In this document: piece by piece, positions 31,338 to 43,309 of the stretch | How the letters are laid out: the number at the start of each line of letters is the position of its first letter | How positions within the stretch are numbered: position 1 is the first letter of the stretch | Program-made: the position numbers and the translations under genes | Origin: Bacteroidota bacterium | Lineage (GTDB): Bacteria > Bacteroidota > Bacteroidia > AKYH767-A > OLB10 | Reading direction: 5' to 3' | Length of the DNA stretch: 59,350 nucleotides | Assembly (NCBI GenBank): GCA_024638565.1 | Contig: JAHEKC010000007.1 | Location: 1-59,350, forward strand | Notes under the pieces: model-generated | Seen by the model: the letters and a program-made list of their open reading frames with translations, nothing else | Told to the model about the DNA's origin: nothing | Database searches by the model: none

Positions 31338-33677
31338 ATGAGAAGAACAATTGTGCTGATTAGCCTCTGCTCCGCACTGCTGGCACCCGCCGTGTACGGC
31401 CAGAAACTGCCCGCTGAATGGCGTATCACGCCTGACGGCAGGATGCTCATTCTCGGCGACCAGGACAAGAAGGCCACGCTGTACGACCACCTGATCGTTC
31501 GAGACATCCACCTCTCATTCACGCAGCCGAACTACTGGCAGATCATGCAGGGGAATTACCAGTCGCAGACCAATCTCATGGCCACCATGGTTGTGGATGG
31601 CATCACTTACGACAGCGTGGGTGTCCGGTTTAAAGGCCAGACTTCCTACTCGCAAACGGGCAATGCCCAGAAGAAATCGTTCAACATAGAAACAGACTGG
31701 CTCGTTCCCGGGCAGAAGCTGATGGGCTACGACATCCTGAACCTGCACAACTGCTTCCAGGATGAGTCCTTCATGCGGGAAGTGTTTTTCCAGCACCAGC
31801 TCCGGAATCATATCCCTATCGCCAAGTCGGCATTCACGAAATTGTATATCAACGGCCAGAACTGGGGTGTGTATCCCAACATAGAACAGGTCAGCGGCGA
31901 GTTCCTGAACGAATGGTTCCTCAGCAACGACGGATCGCTGTGGCGTGCCGACCGCCCACCGGGCTCACCCGGCGGTCCCGGCGGTGGCTGGGGCGACGGT
32001 ACGGCGGCACTAAACTATCACGGGCCTGACACCTCCCTCTACCAGCCCTATTATACGCTGAAGCGGTTTACGAAAACGAATCCATGGGATGACCTGGTGA
32101 ACACCTGCGATGTACTCAACAACACGCCGCTGGCCAACCTGCCCCAGACCCTGGCCGGCGTCATGGATATCGACCGGACCCTTTGGGTCCTCGCCGCGGA
32201 GATCCTGTTCTCTGACGACGACAGCTATGTCCACAAGGGAAAGATGGACTACTATGTCTACTACGAACCCGAAACGGGAAGGATGGTCGCGCAGGAATAT
32301 GACGGCAACAGTGTCATGAGTCCGAATTACCAGTACTGGAGCCCGTTCTACCATGAAACAAATCCCAACTACCCCCTGCTGAACCGCCTGTTGGCTATCC
32401 CCGGGCTCCGGCAGCGGTACCTGGCGCATTTGCGCACACTCATCGCGGAAGCATTTGACACCACGACCGCATTTCCGCTTATTGACGGTTACAAGGCGCT
32501 GATCGATACCATGGTGCAGAACGACCCGAAGAAGCTGTACTCCTACAGCCAGTTCGTGAATGAAATAACGGTACTGAAGAACTTTATCACCCTGCGAAAA
32601 GGATTCCTGAATAATAACCCGGAGGTCATGCAGACCGGTCCGTCGATCAGCAACACAGTTTACTATACCAATGGCAACGCCTGGACGGCACCTTCCGATT
32701 CCGATGACGTGGTGGTCAACGCCTCACTGGCCCATACCAGTGGCATCCAGGACGCCCGGCTGTATTACAGCAACGGGCTGGTGGGCAATTTCACCCGGAC
32801 CGATATGTTCGATGACGGGCAGCATGACGATGGGGCGGCAGGCGACGGCGTATACGGGGCTACCATCCCGGGTCATGCCGCCGGAAGCTGGGTGCGGTTC
32901 TACGTGGAAGGTGCCGCGGCCAACAATGCACAAACGGTCACCTATGACCCGCCGGGCGCCGAGCATGACGTATACATATACGTGGTGGCTCCCAAACTGG
33001 CCAACGACACCCATGTGGTCATCAATGAACTGATGGCCTCCAACATTTCAGCCGTCACAGACAATGCCGGTGAGTATGATGACTGGATCGAATTGTACAA
33101 CAACTCCACCAGCCCGGTGGATATCAGCGGCTATTTCCTTACGGATAACACGGTCAACCTGACCAAGTACACCTTTCCGCAGGGCACCGTCCTGCTGCCG
33201 AACGCGTACCTGATCGTGTGGGCAGACGAGGATGCCAGCCAGGGTGCCTTCCATGCCAACTTCAAACTTTCCGCGGCCGGTGAACAGCTTTACCTGCTCA
33301 ATCCCGGCCAGGAGCTGGTGGATTCCATCAGCTGGGGTCAGCAGGTCGCGGACATGGGATTTGCACGTGTCCCCAACGGGGTGGGGAATTTCATCATCCA
33401 GCAGCATACCTATGCCGCCAACAACAACCTGACCTCGGTCCAGGAGCTGGAGCCGGCGGTCACCGACCTGCTTCTCTTTCCCAACCCCGCCAGGGAGGTC
33501 TTGAATATAAAGGCCGTGGGAACGGAACGTGCTGAGCTGACGGTCACCGACATGCCCGGCAGGCTCGTTTACAGGAGTGAGCTGCACGGCGAGGCCCGCA
33601 TTTCACTGGCAGGCTGGAAAGCCGGTATATACCTGGTACGCTGCGGGGCTTTGACGCGGAAACTGGTGGTGCAGTAG
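31338..33677 (+). CDS. Secreted CotH-family kinase with lamin-tail domain and T9SS CTD
   Basis: Signal peptide; VGVRFKGQTS, KKSFNI, DESFMRE, LYINGQNWGVY...EQV; FDDGQHDDGAAGDGVYG; VVINELMASN...DDWIELYN; FPNPA...GIYLVR. Confidence 0.88.
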   Translation: MRRTIVLISLCSALLAPAVYGQKLPAEWRITPDGRMLILGDQDKKATLYDHLIVRDIHLSFTQPNYWQIMQGNYQSQTNLMATMVVDGITYDSVGVRFKGQTSYSQTGNAQKKSFNIETDWLVPGQKLMGYDILNLHNCFQDESFMREVFFQHQLRNHIPIAKSAFTKLYINGQNWGVYPNIEQVSGEFLNEWFLSNDGSLWRADRPPGSPGGPGGGWGDGTAALNYHGPDTSLYQPYYTLKRFTKTNPWDDLVNTCDVLNNTPLANLPQTLAGVMDIDRTLWVLAAEILFSDDDSYVHKGKMDYYVYYEPETGRMVAQEYDGNSVMSPNYQYWSPFYHETNPNYPLLNRLLAIPGLRQRYLAHLRTLIAEAFDTTTAFPLIDGYKALIDTMVQNDPKKLYSYSQFVNEITVLKNFITLRKGFLNNNPEVMQTGPSISNTVYYTNGNAWTAPSDSDDVVVNASLAHTSGIQDARLYYSNGLVGNFTRTDMFDDGQHDDGAAGDGVYGATIPGHAAGSWVRFYVEGAAANNAQTVTYDPPGAEHDVYIYVVAPKLANDTHVVINELMASNISAVTDNAGEYDDWIELYNNSTSPVDISGYFLTDNTVNLTKYTFPQGTVLLPNAYLIVWADEDASQGAFHANFKLSAAGEQLYLLNPGQELVDSISWGQQVADMGFARVPNGVGNFIIQQHTYAANNNLTSVQELEPAVTDLLLFPNPAREVLNIKAVGTERAELTVTDMPGRLVYRSELHGEARISLAGWKAGIYLVRCGALTRKLVVQ

Positions 33678-35352: not shown

Positions 35353-36345
35353 TTAGATAGCCAGGTAGTACATCAGCACCAGGTATATGCATATGATCAC
35401 CACGGAGTCCAGCCCGAACAGCCATACTTTGCGCTGCGGCCTTATCATGATGCCCAGTCCCACGACCGCCGTCATCACCACGGTGGCCATCACCGACTCC
35501 ATGTGTGCCTTACTGATGGCGGCATACAATGAACCGCCTGTATAAAACAGGTCGTCGATACCCAGGATGAGGATATTGAAGATATTGCTCCCCAGCAGGT
35601 TCCCCACCACCATGTCATACGCCATCAGCCGCACGGCGGCAATGGATACGACCAGCTCCGGCAGCGAGGTGGCCGCGGCAAGGAAGAGCGTGCCGAAGAA
35701 GGTATCAGAGATGCCATACCAGGCAGCCAGCTCCTCACCGAAATACGGCAGGAACAACGCCGCCACAAGTACGACAAGTGCATTCAGCCCGTAAACGATC
35801 AGGGAACGCCTCAGCGAAGGCGGCTTCCCGCCGGATATGGCTGTCGTCTCCCGTTCCGGCATAACCTTACCCGACCTGCCGAAACGGTAGATCGCGTAGA
35901 TCGTGGCCAGGTACACCACGAAGATGACGGGCGTGAAAGCACTGACCCAAAAAAAGACAGGAGTCTTTTCCGCCGTAAGGATGGCCACCCCCGAAACCGT
36001 GAGCAGGATCAGGCTGAAAAAGCCAGCCACCACGTGGCTGCGCTCCACCAGGGACGTAAGCGGTTTCCTGATACGGGCGTCGAGCAATGAGAGGATCAGC
36101 AGGTTGAAAACACAGCTCCCGAAAATGTCCCCTGCGGCCAGGTCCGGCGCCTTGACGACCGCCACCGCACTGATGCCATTGACAAGTTCAGGCAAAGAGG
36201 TGATCGATGCCATTAAGATGAGCCCGATCCATGCCTTGCTCAGGCCCGTCAGCTCGGAGATCCGGTTGCCATGGTAGGTCAGCCGGATGCCGCTGACCAC
36301 GATCAGGGCCGTGCATATTATAAAACCTGCCAGTGCCTGCCACAT
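35353..36345 (-). CDS. Ca2+/cation antiporter (Na+/Ca2+ exchanger, YrbG-like)
   Basis: Two alpha repeats: ITSLPE...GDIFGSCVFN and ATSLPE...GNLLGSNIFN. Confidence 0.92.
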   Translation of the reverse strand: MWQALAGFIICTALIVVSGIRLTYHGNRISELTGLSKAWIGLILMASITSLPELVNGISAVAVVKAPDLAAGDIFGSCVFNLLILSLLDARIRKPLTSLVERSHVVAGFFSLILLTVSGVAILTAEKTPVFFWVSAFTPVIFVVYLATIYAIYRFGRSGKVMPERETTAISGGKPPSLRRSLIVYGLNALVVLVAALFLPYFGEELAAWYGISDTFFGTLFLAAATSLPELVVSIAAVRLMAYDMVVGNLLGSNIFNILILGIDDLFYTGGSLYAAISKAHMESVMATVVMTAVVGLGIMIRPQRKVWLFGLDSVVIICIYLVLMYYLAI

Positions 36346-36465: not shown

Positions 36466-37134
36466 TTAAAGGCTTATCTCAATATCCACCCCTACCACGT
36501 AATCCGTCACCGGTGCCACTACATTCACTTCCTTGTTGATCATGTAATACAGCCCGAGGGCATAGGTCTTGTTAAACTTATAATCGGCTCCCACGCGATA
36601 CCTGAGATTGTCCACCGTATTGCCCCCGACACCATTGAGCTGGTAATTCCATTCGAACGAAAAATAAGGGCGGTAGGGGCGGTCCATGTCTGCACGTGCC
36701 GTGATTTTACTGCGCAGGTGGCTCTCGGGAGAAAGTGTCTTGCGGTCGCTGCGCGCCTGCCTGTACTGGGACTGGTAGCGCTCACGGAAAATGAAGTCCA
36801 CGTACCGGGTCCGGTATCTGTATGAAACATCGGCATACCACCGTTGCCGGGACTCGTAATAATCATCCAGCTGCTTCTTGCGGATAAACCGGTAGTGCAG
36901 CTCCACATCCACATGCCTGTTTATCTCGTACCCGACGCCGGCATCCGTATATATCGTGCTGATTTCAGATGCATTCTCGTAAAACCGGACATCTTCCGCG
37001 AGGCTCACTGATAATTCCTTTGTCAGGGCCTTGCCCACGGAAATACTCGTCCAGATCCCGAAGTCATTTACCTGCGAAGCGCCCAAAAACGGGAGGCATA
37101 CAAGCAATGCCATTGCACCAGACACTCTATTCAT
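36466..37134 (-). CDS. DUF2490-like outer-membrane beta-barrel
   Basis: Signal peptide, DFGIWTSISV, RERYQ...HLRSK, amphipathic strands; 8-nt overlap with the upstream gene. Confidence 0.78.
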   Translation of the reverse strand: MNRVSGAMALLVCLPFLGASQVNDFGIWTSISVGKALTKELSVSLAEDVRFYENASEISTIYTDAGVGYEINRHVDVELHYRFIRKKQLDDYYESRQRWYADVSYRYRTRYVDFIFRERYQSQYRQARSDRKTLSPESHLRSKITARADMDRPYRPYFSFEWNYQLNGVGGNTVDNLRYRVGADYKFNKTYALGLYYMINKEVNVVAPVTDYVVGVDIEISL

Positions 37135-37744
37135 AGTAATACACCTGCAGCTGGGCGGAATCCCGCAGAAAATCGACGGTATTGATGTTTACATGATTGA
37201 CCTTCACCCCCAGCCTTTTCTCGAGGTCGTCTATAAGCTCCTGCCTGCGTTCAGGACGGATCAATTCGATCTTCTCATAATTCACAACCTTCGACACCTC
37301 GTTCCTGATGAGCACATTATACTCCATCAGGTAGGTAAAAATCAAAATGATTCCCCCCAGTATGCTGAACTCATCCCAGCTGCCCCTGCTCACGGCCATG
37401 ATCAGCCCGATCGAGATGGACAGGAACAAATAGGTCATATCCTTCATGGAGATGTTCTCCGTCCGGTAGCGAAGCATCGAAAAGACGGCAAAAAGACCGA
37501 AAGCCGCACCGATACTCATTTCCACCTTGTTCAGCAGGTAGGTAACCAGAAAAATGAGAATGTTGAAGATGAAATAGGTGAAGACGTACTCCCTGTTCCT
37601 TCTCGACGGCAGGTAAATCAGCCGCAGCAGCACCCACATGGTCACCAGGTTGATCCCGAGCCGCATGAAGAACTTCGGCGGAAGCCGGTTCAGGAACTCC
37701 ATCGCATTGTTCGTTTCGTTCAGGATCAGTTCAGGCAATAGCAT
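37127..37744 (-). CDS. DUF4956 membrane protein
   Basis: GAAFGLFAVFSMLRYRTENISMKDMTYLF signature, about 5 TM helices, and C-terminal YEKIELI...DLEKRLG...VDFLRD. Confidence 0.87.
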   Translation of the reverse strand: MLLPELILNETNNAMEFLNRLPPKFFMRLGINLVTMWVLLRLIYLPSRRNREYVFTYFIFNILIFLVTYLLNKVEMSIGAAFGLFAVFSMLRYRTENISMKDMTYLFLSISIGLIMAVSRGSWDEFSILGGIILIFTYLMEYNVLIRNEVSKVVNYEKIELIRPERRQELIDDLEKRLGVKVNHVNINTVDFLRDSAQLQVYYYE

Positions 37745-38495
37745 TTTGCTTTAGTTTTTGAATGCGGATCATCCGCGGTTTGAAATTGTTTTGCCGGATT
37801 CCGGCATGAAGCCTGGCCACGCCAAAGCAATACTTACTCAGCGAACCCTTGCGGATATGCCGTTCCCGCAACAGCTCGACGAATTCCGACCTCCGGGCCC
37901 GTTCCTGCTTTATTTCCACGATCACCAGTCCGTCGAGGCCCACCGTTCGTTCGCCGTTCCGGAAAGTAACCTCCCGGTCAATGGTTACCCGCTCCGGACT
38001 GTGCCTGTTGACGATCGTAATGCGCGTGAAGTCGACATGCAACCGGGCTTTAAGCATGGAGGCGTCCATCGGTGTGAGCGAGCGTAACAGCTCGTCTTCC
38101 GGGCCGGCTATATATTCCATGTTTCGTGGCACCTTGATCCGGTTCTTAACGGTTCGCCCCTTATTATTCTTGAACTTGATCTCGAAAAAACTGATCCCGG
38201 ATTCCACGTAGGTCCGGTACCTGATCTTGAAACGGTTCAGCTTGCCGCACTGGTGCTGGTGGTACAGGCGGAGGTCCGGTGTATCGAAATACACGGAGGT
38301 ATAATGGATCATCCTGGCCCCGCTGACCTCCAGCGCACGGTACGACGGAAGCAAAGCCTCGAAAAGCCCCGGCAGCAGGTTCTCATGAAATACATACTTG
38401 GTATCGGTACGATCCATCAACCGGACGCTATCCATCTCTTTCAGCGTGATTGGATCGAAACGGGCCACGACCTCTGAAACAGATGCGGCTGACAT
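37731..38495 (-). CDS. VTC-domain (CYTH/TTM) polyphosphate polymerase
   Basis: RTDTKYV, SVYFDT, RFKIRYRTY, FFEIKFK, ERVTID, IVEIKQ and SKYC tunnel motifs; no signal peptide. Confidence 0.9.
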   Translation of the reverse strand: MSAASVSEVVARFDPITLKEMDSVRLMDRTDTKYVFHENLLPGLFEALLPSYRALEVSGARMIHYTSVYFDTPDLRLYHQHQCGKLNRFKIRYRTYVESGISFFEIKFKNNKGRTVKNRIKVPRNMEYIAGPEDELLRSLTPMDASMLKARLHVDFTRITIVNRHSPERVTIDREVTFRNGERTVGLDGLVIVEIKQERARRSEFVELLRERHIRKGSLSKYCFGVARLHAGIRQNNFKPRMIRIQKLKQNAIA

Positions 38496-38499
38496 GGGA

Positions 38500-38898
38500 T
38501 CAGTTGCGCTTGATGATGAATGTTCCGGCATCCACCACCTGGTCATTGCCGGTGATCTCCACGTTGTGGATCACGGGAATCTTGCCCACGGTATCCGACA
38601 GCGTGGTATCACCTGAATAAACATACACCCGGTAGTTGCCTTTTCGCAGGTACTTGAACTCAAAGCGACCGTCAGGGCTTGTCCACAACCGGTCGCCATA
38701 GCTGATATCGTCGCCGTAGATGATGAAAACCTCTTCGTCAGCACCGTCATGCTCCCCGAGCACCTGCGTGTAGAAGGCATTGTACTGGACTACTTTCACG
38801 TACCCGGTGATGGAGGAGCTCCCCCCCTCACCCGGCCCTTTCTTGCAGGAAACGAGTATAACAGCCAGCAGGAATACAAAAGGAATACTTCTGATCAT
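38500..38898 (-). CDS. Small lipoprotein with Ig/transthyretin-like fold
   Basis: Lipobox LVSC-KK; GEGGSSSITG; DGRFEFKYLRKGNYRVYVY; stop 4 nt before the VTC start. Confidence 0.8.
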   Translation of the reverse strand: MIRSIPFVFLLAVILVSCKKGPGEGGSSSITGYVKVVQYNAFYTQVLGEHDGADEEVFIIYGDDISYGDRLWTSPDGRFEFKYLRKGNYRVYVYSGDTTLSDTVGKIPVIHNVEITGNDQVVDAGTFIIKRN

Positions 38899-38958
38899 AA
38901 GTCTTTGACCATTTAGAATGCGCGTGGATTAATCGCCGCGGTACGGCAAACCAAGGCC

Positions 38959-41496
38959 TTATCGTTCCGGAGCGTATACCAGCCTGACGGATTTGCGATG
39001 TTTACCCGCCCGCAGCTCCAGTAAGTACACGCCGCCTGCAAGCCCGCTTCCGGAGAGGTTCAGGTTGACGGAGTGGTTGCCCGGCATGGTGACACCGCCT
39101 GGCGCGGCAAGCTGCATGATCTCCGCACCCATGAGGTTATAGAGCCTGATCGATACAGGCATGGCTTCCGCAAGACTGAAGTGGATGGTGGTTTCGTCGC
39201 TGAACAGGTTCGGGCTGGCGCTCACCAATGGACCGTCCAGCGGCAGCAGTTCCGGCACGCCCGTGGTCAGGAAGTGGGCCACGATGGTATCCGTAGATCC
39301 CAGGCTGACAGCCGCCTGGATGGAAGTGGCTGAAGGGTTAAAGGCATGAGCACCGGAGGTCCACTGGGAGAACTGGTTTCCGCCCGTGGGCACTGCTTCC
39401 AGTTTCGTATCAATCCCACTGAAATACTGTCCTGTCCAGGGCAGGTTCTGCAGTGACAGCGAGTTGAGGTTTGCATATCCCGCTCCTTTCGGTGCCGCCT
39501 CAATGGTGACCTGGTGCAGGGCGCCCAGGTTGTAGCAGTTCTGCCAGCCGGGAATGAGGGTTGTGCAGCGCGCCACGATAAAGGCACGCAGGTCGGCTAC
39601 ATTCTGGACCCACTGGGCATAGGTGCCACCCCACCGGGTGCTGTGCCAGGTCATCTCCGGGTCTATTACGGCCACAGTACTGTCGAACTGCGCCAGCATG
39701 TTGTCGCACCTGAACGTGGTATTCCAAAGGTCTAGTTGTCGTGCAATGTAGAACTGGTTGAAATCCGGGTTTTGCCTGAGCGCCAGCAACACGCCGATAT
39801 GGTCATCGGGATCCGAATTGCCATTGAGGGTTTCCGGATCGCACGGGCTTGCCGTGGGTGTCGTGTTCGGGATACCCGTGTAGTTGATGTAGTGGCCCCA
39901 GGTGGCATCGTTATCCCAGAGCTGGTAGCCCCATTTCAGGTGGGTACCGGTACTGTCGAGCCCGCGCCACCAGCAGACATTCCAGTTCAGCCAGTCGGAA
40001 CAAACGGAGAACATATTGGCAAGCACATAGTCTGTGAGGCTTGCCACGTCCAGACGGTCGTAAACGTATTGGTAGCTTGCAGGGTTCGCCATGCTGTTAC
40101 CCATGATGTAGTTGTACAGGTTCAGCCAGTCTGTATTGGCTGCCGCCCCGCCATACTCGGACCATTTGTTGCCCCATCGCTTGAGCATGTACAAATTGTA
40201 CTTGTCCTGCCCGTAATAAAACTTGGTGAGGTCATGGTTATCGGGGTTGTCGCGAATATCGTACACCCCCCAGTAGATGTTGTTCAGGTATACGATGGCC
40301 TTTGAGCCTCTCCGGACTTCCATGTTCATTCCGCCGGAAAGCACCAGGTTATGCAGGTAGGCATCCCGGACATGCGCGCTCCCGCTGTTGGCGGGCTTGA
40401 AGTCGGCCGGGAAGTTGTCGTCACCGGCCGCGCGAAGCATCACCCGCTGGAAGTTATCCATGGTGGTGGTACTGAAGAGCGGGTGTTCGACCGAATGGTT
40501 GTACCCCATCTCGTCCCTCGAGATGAAGTCGAGGCTGCGCTGGCTCAGGGCCCAGGAATCCTGCCCGTGACGGTTGAACTCACCGTATGTATTGGACTTA
40601 CGTACCCCGGAGGTATCAAACAGTTCGAATGTCCCGTGCGGCTCCAGGTTGCCGTTACCGTTGGCAAGCGCATCCAGACTGTTGCCTGCGATCGAAACCA
40701 CCGGCAGGGTATGTGTCTGCCCAATGAAATAGGTATGGAACTCGATCCTGCTGGGAAGGATGGATGGGTCGGACGAATAGGTGATGGCTTTTAATACGGT
40801 AGTGTTCGCAATGGAAAGAGGGCCGGTATATAAAGGGGAGGTGATGGTAGGCCGTGTGCCATCTATGGTATAGCGAATATCGGACGCCGGCTCTGTGTTG
40901 GTGATGATCACGGTGATGCCCGTGGGATAGAACCCGGCTACCATGCTGTAGTCGGGCCTGTCTGCATACCCGGCATAAGGGGTACCGGTATCATTGGTGG
41001 CCCCGAAGGTGGGACTTACGAAAATGGCCCATGTGGGCGAACCGTCTTTCACACGACCCCGGGAGTGGCCCAGGTGGGTGTTGGGCGACATGTAGGTGTA
41101 ATCAATAATATTCATGGAGGCGTCTGACAGCATCACGTATTCACCGTTGTTCTTGGTCTGTGTCAGATTAAAGTTGGTATGGTAATGGCCGCCCGCCACT
41201 TCGTTTCGGCCATCGCACCATACGATAAGGTACCCTCCTGCGGGGATGGTCGTGCCGGCGGGAAACTGCCAGCGTGTCAGGTTGAGCGAATCGTCGCTCA
41301 GGTAATACCCGCCGATGTTGGCCCCCGTGGCGCCCATGTTGTGAAGTTCCACCCAGTCGCCGAAGTCACTGTGGTTATCCACGAACTGGTCGAGGTTGGA
41401 ACATGAGTACTCGTTGATGACGACCTGCGCCCGCGCGCCGGCCCATATGCTCATACATACTAAAAAAAGGATCGTTTTCCTGGAAATCATTTTCAT
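38959..41496 (-). CDS. Secreted CotH-family kinase with N-terminal lamin-tail domain, FN3-associated/chitobiase-like domain and T9SS CTD
   Basis: QVVINEY...DWVELHN; IRYTIDGTRP; RHGQDSW, MLRAAGDD, VRD, YWGVYDIRD, SDWLNWN, LWDNDATWG; CTD LAGGVYLLEL. Confidence 0.88.
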   Translation of the reverse strand: MKMISRKTILFLVCMSIWAGARAQVVINEYSCSNLDQFVDNHSDFGDWVELHNMGATGANIGGYYLSDDSLNLTRWQFPAGTTIPAGGYLIVWCDGRNEVAGGHYHTNFNLTQTKNNGEYVMLSDASMNIIDYTYMSPNTHLGHSRGRVKDGSPTWAIFVSPTFGATNDTGTPYAGYADRPDYSMVAGFYPTGITVIITNTEPASDIRYTIDGTRPTITSPLYTGPLSIANTTVLKAITYSSDPSILPSRIEFHTYFIGQTHTLPVVSIAGNSLDALANGNGNLEPHGTFELFDTSGVRKSNTYGEFNRHGQDSWALSQRSLDFISRDEMGYNHSVEHPLFSTTTMDNFQRVMLRAAGDDNFPADFKPANSGSAHVRDAYLHNLVLSGGMNMEVRRGSKAIVYLNNIYWGVYDIRDNPDNHDLTKFYYGQDKYNLYMLKRWGNKWSEYGGAAANTDWLNLYNYIMGNSMANPASYQYVYDRLDVASLTDYVLANMFSVCSDWLNWNVCWWRGLDSTGTHLKWGYQLWDNDATWGHYINYTGIPNTTPTASPCDPETLNGNSDPDDHIGVLLALRQNPDFNQFYIARQLDLWNTTFRCDNMLAQFDSTVAVIDPEMTWHSTRWGGTYAQWVQNVADLRAFIVARCTTLIPGWQNCYNLGALHQVTIEAAPKGAGYANLNSLSLQNLPWTGQYFSGIDTKLEAVPTGGNQFSQWTSGAHAFNPSATSIQAAVSLGSTDTIVAHFLTTGVPELLPLDGPLVSASPNLFSDETTIHFSLAEAMPVSIRLYNLMGAEIMQLAAPGGVTMPGNHSVNLNLSGSGLAGGVYLLELRAGKHRKSVRLVYAPER

Positions 41497-41663: not shown

Positions 41664-43124
41664 TTATTGTCGTTCGTAGGCTCCCAGGTCGGGATCTGAG
41701 GTACGGTCCCTGCCCAGGAAATCCTCCATTGTTTCCGGGACCAGCCATGCCGGATCGGCAATATCGAGCGCCGGCGAACCGGCATTCAGGCGGAAATCGT
41801 TGTCTCCCGTTGCCTTGAAAAGCGGGTCGCTGTTCGTGAGGATATCCTCGAAATGGTTGATATCAGTGACCGGTGTGGTACCATCCACTTTCACCAGGCA
41901 ATCGTAAAAGTTATGTGCAGATGCGGCAGATGCTTCAAAGTCCAGTTCAAGTTCGTTGTCGGCCGTTCCGTAGATAATGCAATTCCGGAACGTGGCCTTA
42001 ACGAGGTCGTTGCCCATGGTACCGGTAGTGCTGTTGTAAAAGTTGTTGATGTACACAACCGGTGCGCTGCGCTGGGCCGGGAAGTAATTGGCAAACGTAC
42101 ATTGGTTAAACTCGTACGAACCGCCGATTGTCAGTGCCATGTTATTGGATCCGCAGTTGCCGACAACCATGTTGTATCCCGTAACTGTATAGTCACGTGC
42201 CAGCATTCCTATGCCACTGGCATTTTTCACGATCGTATTCCTGATCTCGAGGGTCGCCTGGTTTTGGCCGTAGGGAGAAAGGAAGTTCTCGGGCTGGAGC
42301 CCGATGAATGAATTTTTAATTACGGCATTCCGGATGAGGTGCTGGTTGCCTACCCCCCCTTCGTTGATCCATATCCGGTCCCATTGCCCGGGAACGTTGT
42401 CATAAGCTGGTTCCAGCCGCGTACCCTGGAACGTAACGGGATGCTCCACGCTGCCCAGGACCTCCAGCGTGCCATACCGGTATACCCAAAGCCCGGCGCC
42501 CTGGAAGAAGTGGATCCGCGTGCCTTCATGGATCCGGAGTGTATAGCAGGAGTCGACCACCGCATAACCATATACCACGTGCGGCAGGATACTGTCCCAC
42601 TCTATCACGCTGCACGGCGGCAGGGTGTCGCCGTCTATCACGGAATACGGCAGGCCGCCGAAACTGCGGTCCGGGATATGAAAGATGGCATTCTGCCCGA
42701 ATGCCAGCAGGTCCACATCCTGGACCGATCCTTCGCTTTCAAATAGGATGGAGTCTGTCACCAGGAATGGCGTGGCGGCGTTATTGGGATCGATGGTCAC
42801 CTCGATAAAAATCCACAGGCTGTCTTTCGGGCCTATCACCACGTCGTGAACCGTGTGTCCGGGTACGCCATCCACGTTCATCCTGTACGAAGATGCAGCG
42901 CCACGTGCCAGCCGGATGGTGGAGATCCTGACCGCTGAACCCTGGTTGTTGTATACCAGGAGGAATTCCGTGGTGGATCCCAGGGTGGTGAATACGGTAT
43001 CAAACAGGATCGTATCCTCAGAAAACTCCAGGTTGACCGCATTCCCGGTAAGCACATCATCCTCCTTTTTACAGGAGCCGGCGAGCAATGCCAGGGCGAA
43101 GGCTGCGGGTATCCACTTTCTCAT
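41664..43124 (-). CDS. Lipoprotein with Ig-like and right-handed beta-helix (pectin-lyase-like) domains
   Basis: LAGSC-KK lipobox; LEFSEDTILFDTVF; PGQWDRI; FNQCTFAN; DFRLNAGSPALD; PDLGAYE; TATCTTTG at 43139-43132. Confidence 0.8.
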   Translation of the reverse strand: MRKWIPAAFALALLAGSCKKEDDVLTGNAVNLEFSEDTILFDTVFTTLGSTTEFLLVYNNQGSAVRISTIRLARGAASSYRMNVDGVPGHTVHDVVIGPKDSLWIFIEVTIDPNNAATPFLVTDSILFESEGSVQDVDLLAFGQNAIFHIPDRSFGGLPYSVIDGDTLPPCSVIEWDSILPHVVYGYAVVDSCYTLRIHEGTRIHFFQGAGLWVYRYGTLEVLGSVEHPVTFQGTRLEPAYDNVPGQWDRIWINEGGVGNQHLIRNAVIKNSFIGLQPENFLSPYGQNQATLEIRNTIVKNASGIGMLARDYTVTGYNMVVGNCGSNNMALTIGGSYEFNQCTFANYFPAQRSAPVVYINNFYNSTTGTMGNDLVKATFRNCIIYGTADNELELDFEASAASAHNFYDCLVKVDGTTPVTDINHFEDILTNSDPLFKATGDNDFRLNAGSPALDIADPAWLVPETMEDFLGRDRTSDPDLGAYERQ

Positions 43125-43309
43125 GAACGGGCAAAGATAGAAACTGCAATTCCCCGGATTTAGTATCAATGCAGATCGCGCGGTTACCCCTGGGAAGGCC
43201 GTGCGCGTTCTTTTCCTGATACTTCAAAACCAGGCTTTTCCGCAATTTTCTTTTTTTATTACGGGGTTTGGTCGTGTCGCATGATTCTCTATATTTGCAG
43301 TACAGATTT

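Follow-up and report, generated by a model that had tools for sequence, protein, structure and literature searches.

The closest described counterparts of the system presented here come from yeast and from Gram-positive bacteria. In the yeast VTC complex, the synthesis of polyphosphate (polyP) is reported to be coupled to its translocation (bioRxiv 10.1101/2023.01.27.525886), and the product is delivered to the vacuole. In Gram-positive bacteria, pel operons carry cotH, "polyphosphate polymerase" and DUF4956 accessory genes (bioRxiv 10.1101/768473, 10.1101/2024.04.20.589940), while NELoc-2 of Clostridium perfringens holds the genes of a VTC protein, a membrane protein and CotH together (PMC2879425). 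The authors describe the hosts as non-sporulating and the function as not known (bioRxiv 10.1101/768473, 10.1101/2024.04.20.589940, PMC2879425). Here we present a cluster of five open reading frames (ORFs) arranged head to tail on the minus strand, at 36466..41496 of a 59,350-nt stretch of Bacteroidota DNA from a sediment metagenome (hereafter the window, meaning that whole stretch, whose positions are used throughout). The cluster encodes a CotH-family kinase, a small lipoprotein, a VTC-domain protein, a DUF4956 membrane protein and a DUF2490 barrel. We propose that it represents a split bacterial analogue of the VTC synthase-translocase, connected to envelope conduits that are specific to each lineage, and we give an about even chance to this proposal and to the export of polyP that it entails.

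Compared with the yeast complex, the cluster has a homologous catalytic tunnel domain and likewise pairs the enzyme with a membrane protein, an analogy which suggests that synthesis and translocation may be coupled in the bacterial pair as well. The two differ in that the bacterial enzyme is separate and soluble, bearing neither the SPX domain nor a fused transmembrane domain, and in that DUF4956 has five helices and an alpha/beta domain where yeast has the three-helix Vtc1-type domain; the bacterial destination would moreover be the cell exterior and not a vacuole. With the pel operons and NELoc-2 the cluster shares the same three families as neighbours. Those systems, however, are found in monoderm hosts, with exopolysaccharide genes adjacent and without outer-membrane parts, whereas the window adds the DUF2490 barrel, the lipoprotein and a secretion of the type IX secretion system (T9SS) type. 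The gene neighbourhood is thus already known; the pattern of envelope modules and the proposed mechanism are new. An earlier note on this DNA, made from the sequence without database searches, had called these domains familiar neighbours lacking functional characterisation, which agrees with the literature searched (pel operons, NELoc-2), where the large VTC-like family is mentioned merely as an unexplained neighbour. No characterised bacterial VTC protein or polyP exporter was found in that literature, most subscription journals lying outside the search, and we know of no bacterial polyP exporter. Release or display of polyP by bacteria has been reported (e.g. PMC10653871, PMC12772234), and BT3498-99 (DUF4956 and DUF2490) appear in an expression table of Bacteroides thetaiotaomicron (PMC10434189).

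The genes concerned are the following:

38959..41496, minus strand: secreted, multidomain CotH-family kinase, 845 aa (Pfam and NCBIfam matches).
38500..38898, minus strand: small lipoprotein, 132 aa, with a signal peptide ending in LVSC; family without a Pfam model.
37731..38495, minus strand: stand-alone, cytoplasmic VTC-domain protein, predicted polyphosphate polymerase, 254 aa (PF09359).
37127..37744, minus strand: DUF4956 inner-membrane protein, candidate polyP channel or exporter, 205 aa (PF16316).
36466..37134, minus strand: DUF2490 outer-membrane beta-barrel of the putative porin family TC 1.B.81, 222 aa (PF10677).
31338..33677, plus strand: second CotH-family kinase, outside the operon, 779 aa, with CotH and LTD domains and an above-threshold T9SS C-terminal domain (CTD).

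The co-orientation and tight spacing of the five genes, as claimed in the earlier note, were confirmed from the ORF coordinates: 60 nt separate the CotH and lipoprotein genes and 4 nt the lipoprotein and VTC genes, while VTC overlaps DUF4956 by 14 nt and DUF4956 overlaps DUF2490 by 8 nt. Its domain names (CotH, VTC, DUF4956, DUF2490) were likewise all borne out in a Pfam hidden Markov model search. Concerning the starts, the longest ORF of the VTC gene begins at 38546; because the homologues align only from about residue 21 (consensus of the alignment), translation may in fact begin about 20 codons inward, at the ATG at 38435, giving a gap of about 64 nt instead of 4. The start of DUF2490 possibly lies 7 codons later, and its database copy (P0001) has 215 aa. 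Using the window DUF4956 as the query, 54 species-level relatives were found (38–61% identity), nearly all of them Bacteroidota metagenome-assembled genomes (MAGs). The same order, CotH–lipoprotein–p158–VTC–DUF4956–DUF2490, recurs in 10 of the 54, and for this reason the arrangement exceeds chance. The additional gene, p158, encodes a secreted protein of 158–186 aa with a weak RHS/YD-repeat match; it is established between the lipoprotein and VTC in 39/54 relatives (L060-L112, e.g. L066:6729-7205) and is absent from the window. A scan of the window for sigma-70 promoters and terminators was uninformative, since the counts equalled those of shuffled sequence.

The most constant element of these loci is the pair formed by VTC and DUF4956. 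We surveyed a phylum sample of 251 genomes, each at least 90% complete, with one family model per search, and found VTC in 38 genomes, DUF4956 in 77, DUF2490 in 89, CotH in 100 and PPK1 in 214. DUF4956 is present in all 38 VTC genomes and lies directly downstream of VTC, on the same strand, at 39 of the 42 VTC matches; the other three are a fragment and two matches with DUF4956 no more than 3 kb away. The closer relatives keep the order VTC–DUF4956 in 53/54 cases. Additionally, 83 of 94 VTC/DUF4956 junctions overlap or are at most 20 nt apart, a 4-nt overlap being the commonest when starts are taken from the longest ORFs. Of 14 named control genomes, B. thetaiotaomicron, C. glutamicum and M. 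acetivorans match both families and no other matches either; all three also carry CotH, and B. thetaiotaomicron matches DUF2490 as well. VTC and DUF4956 are therefore a near-obligate, translationally coupled pair. The earlier suggestion of a split Vtc4-like unit is upheld as far as this coupling goes; it is not matched by DUF4956 itself, for which no likeness to the membrane domain of yeast VTC was detected.

The VTC protein of the window matches PF09359 over profile positions 2–235 of 235 (E-value = 2.4e-30, 106.3 bits, cut-off 23), and it contains no SPX domain, no other Pfam domain and no transmembrane segment. Single-sequence searches of the PDB gave nothing useful and profiles were needed; a profile built from 39 VTC proteins retrieves the Vtc4 catalytic domain of yeast (3g3q) with an E-value of 1.6e-25, better than Vtc2/Vtc3. 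The triphosphate and Mn ligands reported for Vtc4 are K200, R264, R266, K281, Y359, R361, E426, S457 and K458 (bioRxiv 10.1101/2023.01.27.525886), which correspond, in that order, to K33, R92, R94, K107, F156, R158, E194, S220 and K221 of the window protein. Eight of the nine are identical, including K458, which becomes I or L in the inactive paralogues Vtc2/3 according to the same preprint (bioRxiv 10.1101/2023.01.27.525886), and these eight positions are invariant or nearly so among the 39 homologues. The window protein is hence predicted to be a polyP synthase homologous to the Vtc4 catalytic domain. The VTC-like family is large, with 18,661 library representatives at E ≤ 1e-3 and 4,478 clusters (50% identity) at E ≤ 1e-30, and the best 150 library matches are all stand-alone proteins of 229–349 aa. 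A search for fusions among proteins of at least 535 aa returned a Plasmodium SPX protein only; a VTC-DUF4956 fusion, of about 460 aa, falls below this length and below the 488 aa from which DUF4956 fusions were sought. Some VTC proteins have N-terminal extensions without a Pfam match, namely a protein of 778 aa with VTC at 518-743 (L027:8300-10633) and proteins of 397 aa (L080, L081).

DUF4956 of the window matches PF16316 with an E-value of 1.6e-53. Its AlphaFold2 (AF2) model, built from a 55-row alignment (pLDDT 89.8), consists of an N-terminal helix, five membrane-length helices (residues 23-146) and a C-terminal beta-alpha-beta-beta domain. Three of the five helices are strongly hydrophobic, and the two less hydrophobic ones hold the most conserved residues of the family: among 55 sequences R94 is invariant, and G83, R92 and F107 are nearly so. 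On the positive-inside rule we infer a topology with the N-terminus out and the C-terminus in, which would place the R-x-R motif at the cytoplasmic mouth. The DUF4956 profile retrieved no VTC chain from the PDB at E ≤ 1, Foldseek with the model gave zero matches at E ≤ 1e-3, and a VIA-align wide search with the model reached a best Z of 8.8, a range common for helical bundles, with no VTC chain among the best 50 rows. As there is neither a sequence match to VTC chains nor a convincing structure match, DUF4956 cannot be recognised as related to the Vtc1-type channel and, if it is a channel, it would be an analogue. The search for DUF4956 fusions (at least 488 aa) led to two proteins. P0005, the single member of its cluster, has 671 aa and contains DUF4956 (34-207), a hydrophobic lipobox-like stretch and then a CotH domain (318-628); it may be a true fusion or the read-through of two genes. 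P0006 joins DUF4956 to a phosphorylase on a 2.9-kb contig and is probably an artefact. At two loci (L049, L050) a divergent DUF4956 gene is convergent with that of a 625-631-aa PPDK_N (pyruvate phosphate dikinase ATP-binding) protein.

The neighbours of the pair were studied by calling ORFs and clustering the products in 40 VTC loci, 41 with the window, and in 14 DUF4956 loci lacking VTC. Beside the pair, 24 of the 41 VTC loci have an adaptor, nine a DUF2490 barrel and one a Porin_O_P-like gene in the outer position (22 bits against a cut-off of 20.9, a weak match), while in seven no envelope part was recognised. The adaptor is the commonest neighbour, a protein of about 330–370 aa with a single N-terminal membrane helix, which immediately precedes VTC in 18 loci, immediately follows DUF4956 in five and is also present in L030. 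Its profile matches EmrA at 1e-18, plus MacA and AcrA, and of three representatives, two passed the HlyD_3 cut-off; by sequence it is a periplasmic adaptor of the EmrA-like type. The most telling locus, L030, carries on one strand CotH, DUF4956, the adaptor, an OEP/TolC-family protein (63 bits, cut-off 22), VTC and an LTD protein. Taken over all loci, 34/41 have an adaptor or an outer-membrane barrel next to the pair and in its orientation. The envelope-crossing parts vary by lineage, and this supports trans-envelope export. The earlier note had led polyP out through DUF2490; a trans-envelope route is favoured by the adaptors, the TolC-family protein and the phosphate-porin-like barrel of other lineages, although DUF2490 accompanies the pair in just 9/41 loci. 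The EmrAB-TolC and MacAB-TolC systems offer a likeness, given the EmrA/MacA-like adaptor co-oriented with the pair in those 24 loci and the OEP/TolC protein in one. In contrast to them, the inner-membrane partner would be DUF4956 and not a major facilitator superfamily (MFS), ABC or RND pump, and the window uses a small barrel, with no member of the adaptor cluster within 6 kb of DUF4956. Since DUF4956 is an inner-membrane protein repeatedly wired to adaptors, ducts or barrels, it is most simply an exporter.

Some lineages show further neighbours. In one family (L012, L016, L017), T9SS alpha-amylases with three CBM26 modules are located directly upstream of adaptor–VTC–DUF4956, and a 741-aa protein with a weak MFS match lies downstream. 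In four other loci (L007, L008, L013, L019) an SdiA-regulated/phytase-like beta-propeller protein of about 260 aa adjoins DUF4956.

In the window the outer position is occupied by DUF2490, which matches PF10677 with an E-value of 4.3e-20 (72.6 bits, cut-off 29.8). Its AF2 model is an 11-strand barrel (pLDDT 85.9), for which Foldseek gave 23 matches at E ≤ 1e-3, read as outer-membrane-type barrels; among PDB structures, porins, the PgaA barrel and autotransporter barrels match it best. The in-strand arginines R50, R82, R98, R141 and R178 are kept by 11-12 of the 12 operon-linked homologues compared. In the model the charged strand residues should face the lumen, which would suit an anionic chain. 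DUF2490 thus appears to be an outer-membrane barrel and a putative pore for polyP. It can be compared with anion-selective small or phosphate porins (OprO/OprP and the 12-strand NanC/KdgM type), being a small, monomer-sized barrel with conserved basic strand residues, and in one relative a Porin_O_P-like gene takes its position. DUF2490 is not, however, a sequence member of these families and has a putative porin family of its own, TC 1.B.81, listed without an established function (PMC4827864). It is also far commoner than the system, most copies in the 251 genomes being located elsewhere in the genome. Concerning the 132-aa protein, we take the LVSC at the end of its signal peptide to be a lipobox. 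Its single Pfam match is a weak one to fn3_3, its nearest Atlas clusters are unnamed Bacteroidota proteins, and the family is confined to Bacteroidota, with homologues also in L039, L041 and L045. Within 7.5 kb and on the same strand, DUF2490 was found in 38 of the 54 relatives and the lipoprotein in 35.

Several observations weigh against export of polyP by the pair. A channel role for DUF4956 is drawn from its gene context, as the protein has no VTC-chain match in the PDB and no clear fold match, and no biochemical or expression data on any bacterial member were found in the literature searched. Seven of the 41 loci consist of a bare VTC-DUF4956 pair amid housekeeping genes. The window's genome (97.5% complete) has no match to PPK1 (PF02503) or PPK2 (PF03976), so the window VTC could simply be a housekeeping polyP synthase. 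DUF4956 with an adaptor occurs without VTC in 39 of 77 DUF4956 genomes, two of which (G134 and G198) are also without PPK1, so polyP need not be its cargo. Finally, the position of Vtc4 Y359 holds F in the window protein (Y in 27/39 homologues, F in 12/39), and this is a real difference because a Y359F mutant is reported to lower polyP in yeast (bioRxiv 10.1101/2023.01.27.525886). The intact tunnel motifs of the earlier note are therefore intact at the eight other ligands, K458 included, and altered at this one.

One explanation that would account for part of this is that VTC and DUF4956 constitute a membrane-anchored polyP synthase serving internal storage, energy or membrane granules. DUF4956 would then be an anchor or a regulator acting through its C-terminal domain, which has weak ACT-like matches, and the envelope genes and CotH would be mechanistically unrelated. 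The bare pairs agree with it, as does the distribution of the other polyP enzymes: the operon-sharing relatives G074 and G118 are without PPK1 like the window's genome, where VTC would be the only recognisable polyP synthase (a Ppx/GppA homologue is encoded on contig C10). An S. intermedius preprint also suggests that polyP may remain in the cytoplasm. We nevertheless consider internal storage unlikely, given the adaptors and barrels co-oriented with most pairs and a perfect genome-level tie to secreted CotH proteins, described below, which it hardly explains. PPK1 is moreover kept in 34 of the 38 VTC genomes, which speaks for a separate role of VTC, and the idea of VTC as a general replacement of PPK1 was rejected on the same figure.

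The VTC-less loci bring in a different explanation, in which DUF4956 exports a cargo other than polyP and the VTC-domain protein, instead of being a polymerase, powers or gates this export as a triphosphate-tunnel hydrolase or regulator. Nine of the 14 DUF4956-only loci have the order DUF4956–adaptor–TolC-like without VTC, VTC is missing from about half of the DUF4956 genomes as counted above, and triphosphate tunnel metalloenzymes are reported to act on varied triphosphate substrates (PMC9582702); the F at the Y359 position also fits. On the other hand, the VTC profile agrees better with active Vtc4 than with Vtc2/3, the K458 lost in the inactive paralogues is kept, DUF4956 and DUF2490 both have conserved basic residues, and a phosphate-porin-like barrel, weakly matched, stands in the outer position at one locus. 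We regard another cargo as distinctly improbable and retain polyP as the proposed one. The TolC-like assignment in these loci was also checked for c7, a secreted, helical protein of 412 aa, and was rejected, as c7 has no Pfam match and no PDB profile match; a lead towards TolC consists of 9 of 30 Atlas matches named "putative TolC family", with OEP on 11% of members. In L052-L059 (family f27 and others), which are VTC-less, YceI and DUF6580 genes precede DUF4956, an adaptor-like gene, the 412-aa protein and a short-chain dehydrogenase on one strand.

The CotH protein of the window matches PF08757 with an E-value of 2e-21 (77.3 bits, cut-off 23.8). It has a signal peptide, an LTD domain (21-132), a CHB_HEX_C_1/Fn3_assoc region (187-243), the CotH domain (310-644) and a CTD (762-840). 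A profile of 17 CotH domains matches CotH of B. cereus (5jd9) with an E-value of 5.1e-41, and the window protein retains the Asp, an Asn five positions further along and the Asp of the WD-x-D motif. It belongs to the same Pfam family as Bacillus CotH, with the catalytic Asp, the Asn and the metal-binding Asp kept; the D228 and D251 mutants of B. subtilis CotH, which was assayed with ATP, are reported as inactive (PMC7821199). The kept Asp residues would correspond to D228 and D251, assuming a numbering offset of four residues. Unlike the Bacillus protein, which uses ATP within the mother cell, the window CotH combines a signal peptide with LTD and glycan-binding-type domains and with a tail like that of T9SS cargo. 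On account of the signal peptide and the glycan-binding-type domains its expected place of action lies outside the cytoplasm, where little ATP is available, and it should not be a mother-cell coat protein. Its T9SS tail scores below the cut-offs (16.6 against 27 bits in Pfam, 20.8 against 23 for TIGR04183), while SprA is encoded in the genome (E-value = 4e-149). The placing of one product in each compartment, as the earlier note had it, agrees with a VTC protein free of transmembrane segments, with the membrane helices of DUF4956 and with the DUF2490 barrel; the sub-threshold tail leaves T9SS export of CotH as its weaker part. The second CotH, 2.8 kb from the operon, has a CotH domain at 9e-44, LTD at 4.8e-21 and a Por_Secre_tail at 34.3 bits (cut-off 27), and is a possible further user of the system. 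In total the genome has four CotH genes (on C21, twice on C149, and on C158).

At the level of genomes CotH follows the pair closely. It is present in 38/38 VTC genomes and 28/28 VTC genera, against 100/251 genomes and 60/126 genera overall, and in 74/77 DUF4956 genomes; in family f27, CotH was found in the 33 genomes with DUF4956 and in no others. At the level of loci, a CotH gene stands on the same strand beside the unit, within 7.5 kb, in 12/54 relatives (in one of the 54 at the opposite end of the operon), and, with a domain-restricted CotH model that is free of the shared T9SS tail, a CotH domain was placed within 10 kb in 11/41 VTC loci, some of which end at contig ends. The co-occurrence proposed in the earlier note is accordingly found between genomes, with adjacency in a minority of loci.

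These figures lead to the question of whether CotH belongs to the unit. It is possible, if rather doubtful, that the lipoprotein, VTC, DUF4956 and DUF2490 form the functional unit and that CotH is a frequent but independent neighbour, one T9SS cargo gene among many. A terminator-like hairpin is located 5' of the CotH gene, the 60-nt gap between CotH and the lipoprotein is the widest of the cluster, and three of the four CotH genes lie outside the operon. In 13/54 relatives the order is lipoprotein–DUF2490–555-aa T9SS protein–p158–VTC–DUF4956 with no CotH domain found, and elsewhere other T9SS cargo flanks the pair (amylases, GH66, peptidases). An independent CotH is harder to reconcile with its presence in every VTC genome and genus, with its place beside the unit or within 10 kb in the loci just counted, with the same trio reported by the Gram-positive pel operons and in NELoc-2 of C. 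perfringens, and with P0005, which fuses DUF4956 to CotH (a single member, possibly an artefact). Apart from a T9SS tail, the 555-aa protein itself (L073-L079 and others, e.g. L075:5056-6723) matches no Pfam domain; it stands in what is possibly the place of CotH.

A more specific role for CotH was also considered, in which polyP exported through VTC/DUF4956 is the phosphoryl or polyphosphoryl donor of secreted CotH kinases acting on surface proteins or glycans. We consider this quite unlikely. The proposal is drawn from the co-occurrence described above, whose nominal hypergeometric P of 1e-11 is overstated because related genomes are not independent; moreover, 26 of the 100 CotH genomes are without DUF4956, and the low counts of adjacent CotH genes, 12/54 and 11/41, tell against it as well.

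What the analysis shows is the order and coupling of the genes, the identity of the domains, the conserved catalytic residues, the predicted folds and compartments and the co-occurrence; in the mechanism that we propose for the cluster as a split synthase-translocase, the making of polyP, its transfer by DUF4956, its exit through DUF2490 and any use that CotH makes of it are inferred. Like yeast Vtc4, the soluble VTC protein would use a nucleoside triphosphate to build polyP in its basic tunnel, and would hand the growing chain to a DUF4956 oligomer in the inner membrane and thereby into the periplasm. An outer module specific to the lineage would then carry polyP across the rest of the envelope. 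In the window the arginine-lined DUF2490 barrel and the small lipoprotein would play this part; in other lineages it would fall to an EmrA-like adaptor, alone or joined by a TolC-family duct, or to a phosphate-porin-like barrel. At the cell surface, those most likely to profit would be the secreted CotH-family kinases. If true, this would be the first polyP route across a bacterial envelope; DUF4956, and DUF2490 in part, would gain a function, and there would be a testable answer on the donor of secreted CotH kinases. A polyP donor, if real, would mean ATP-independent extracellular phosphorylation and would explain the secreted CotH proteins of non-sporulating bacteria and archaea. The proposed export would also matter for biofilm matrices, through the Gram-positive pel link, for the cycling of phosphate in sediments and for gut Bacteroides, in which the DUF4956-adaptor module is present.

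Bacteroidota-like operons (50-61% identity) were also met on MAG contigs labelled Methanoperedens and Hydrocarboniphaga (L062, L063), which are possibly mis-binned. In the window, DUF2490 is followed after 120 nt by a Na/Ca exchanger gene of the same orientation (35353..36345, minus strand), and the interval holds no terminator-like site. The exchanger was rejected as a part of the system, a homologue being found in none of 94 other loci, and the nucleation of Ca-phosphate that the earlier note had offered as another use of polyP, which had this neighbour as its basis, is thereby left without support. A 501-aa lipoprotein at 41664..43169 was rejected too, as it is not a conserved neighbour; its homologue is established in one other locus, L049, about 5 kb from a VTC-less DUF4956.

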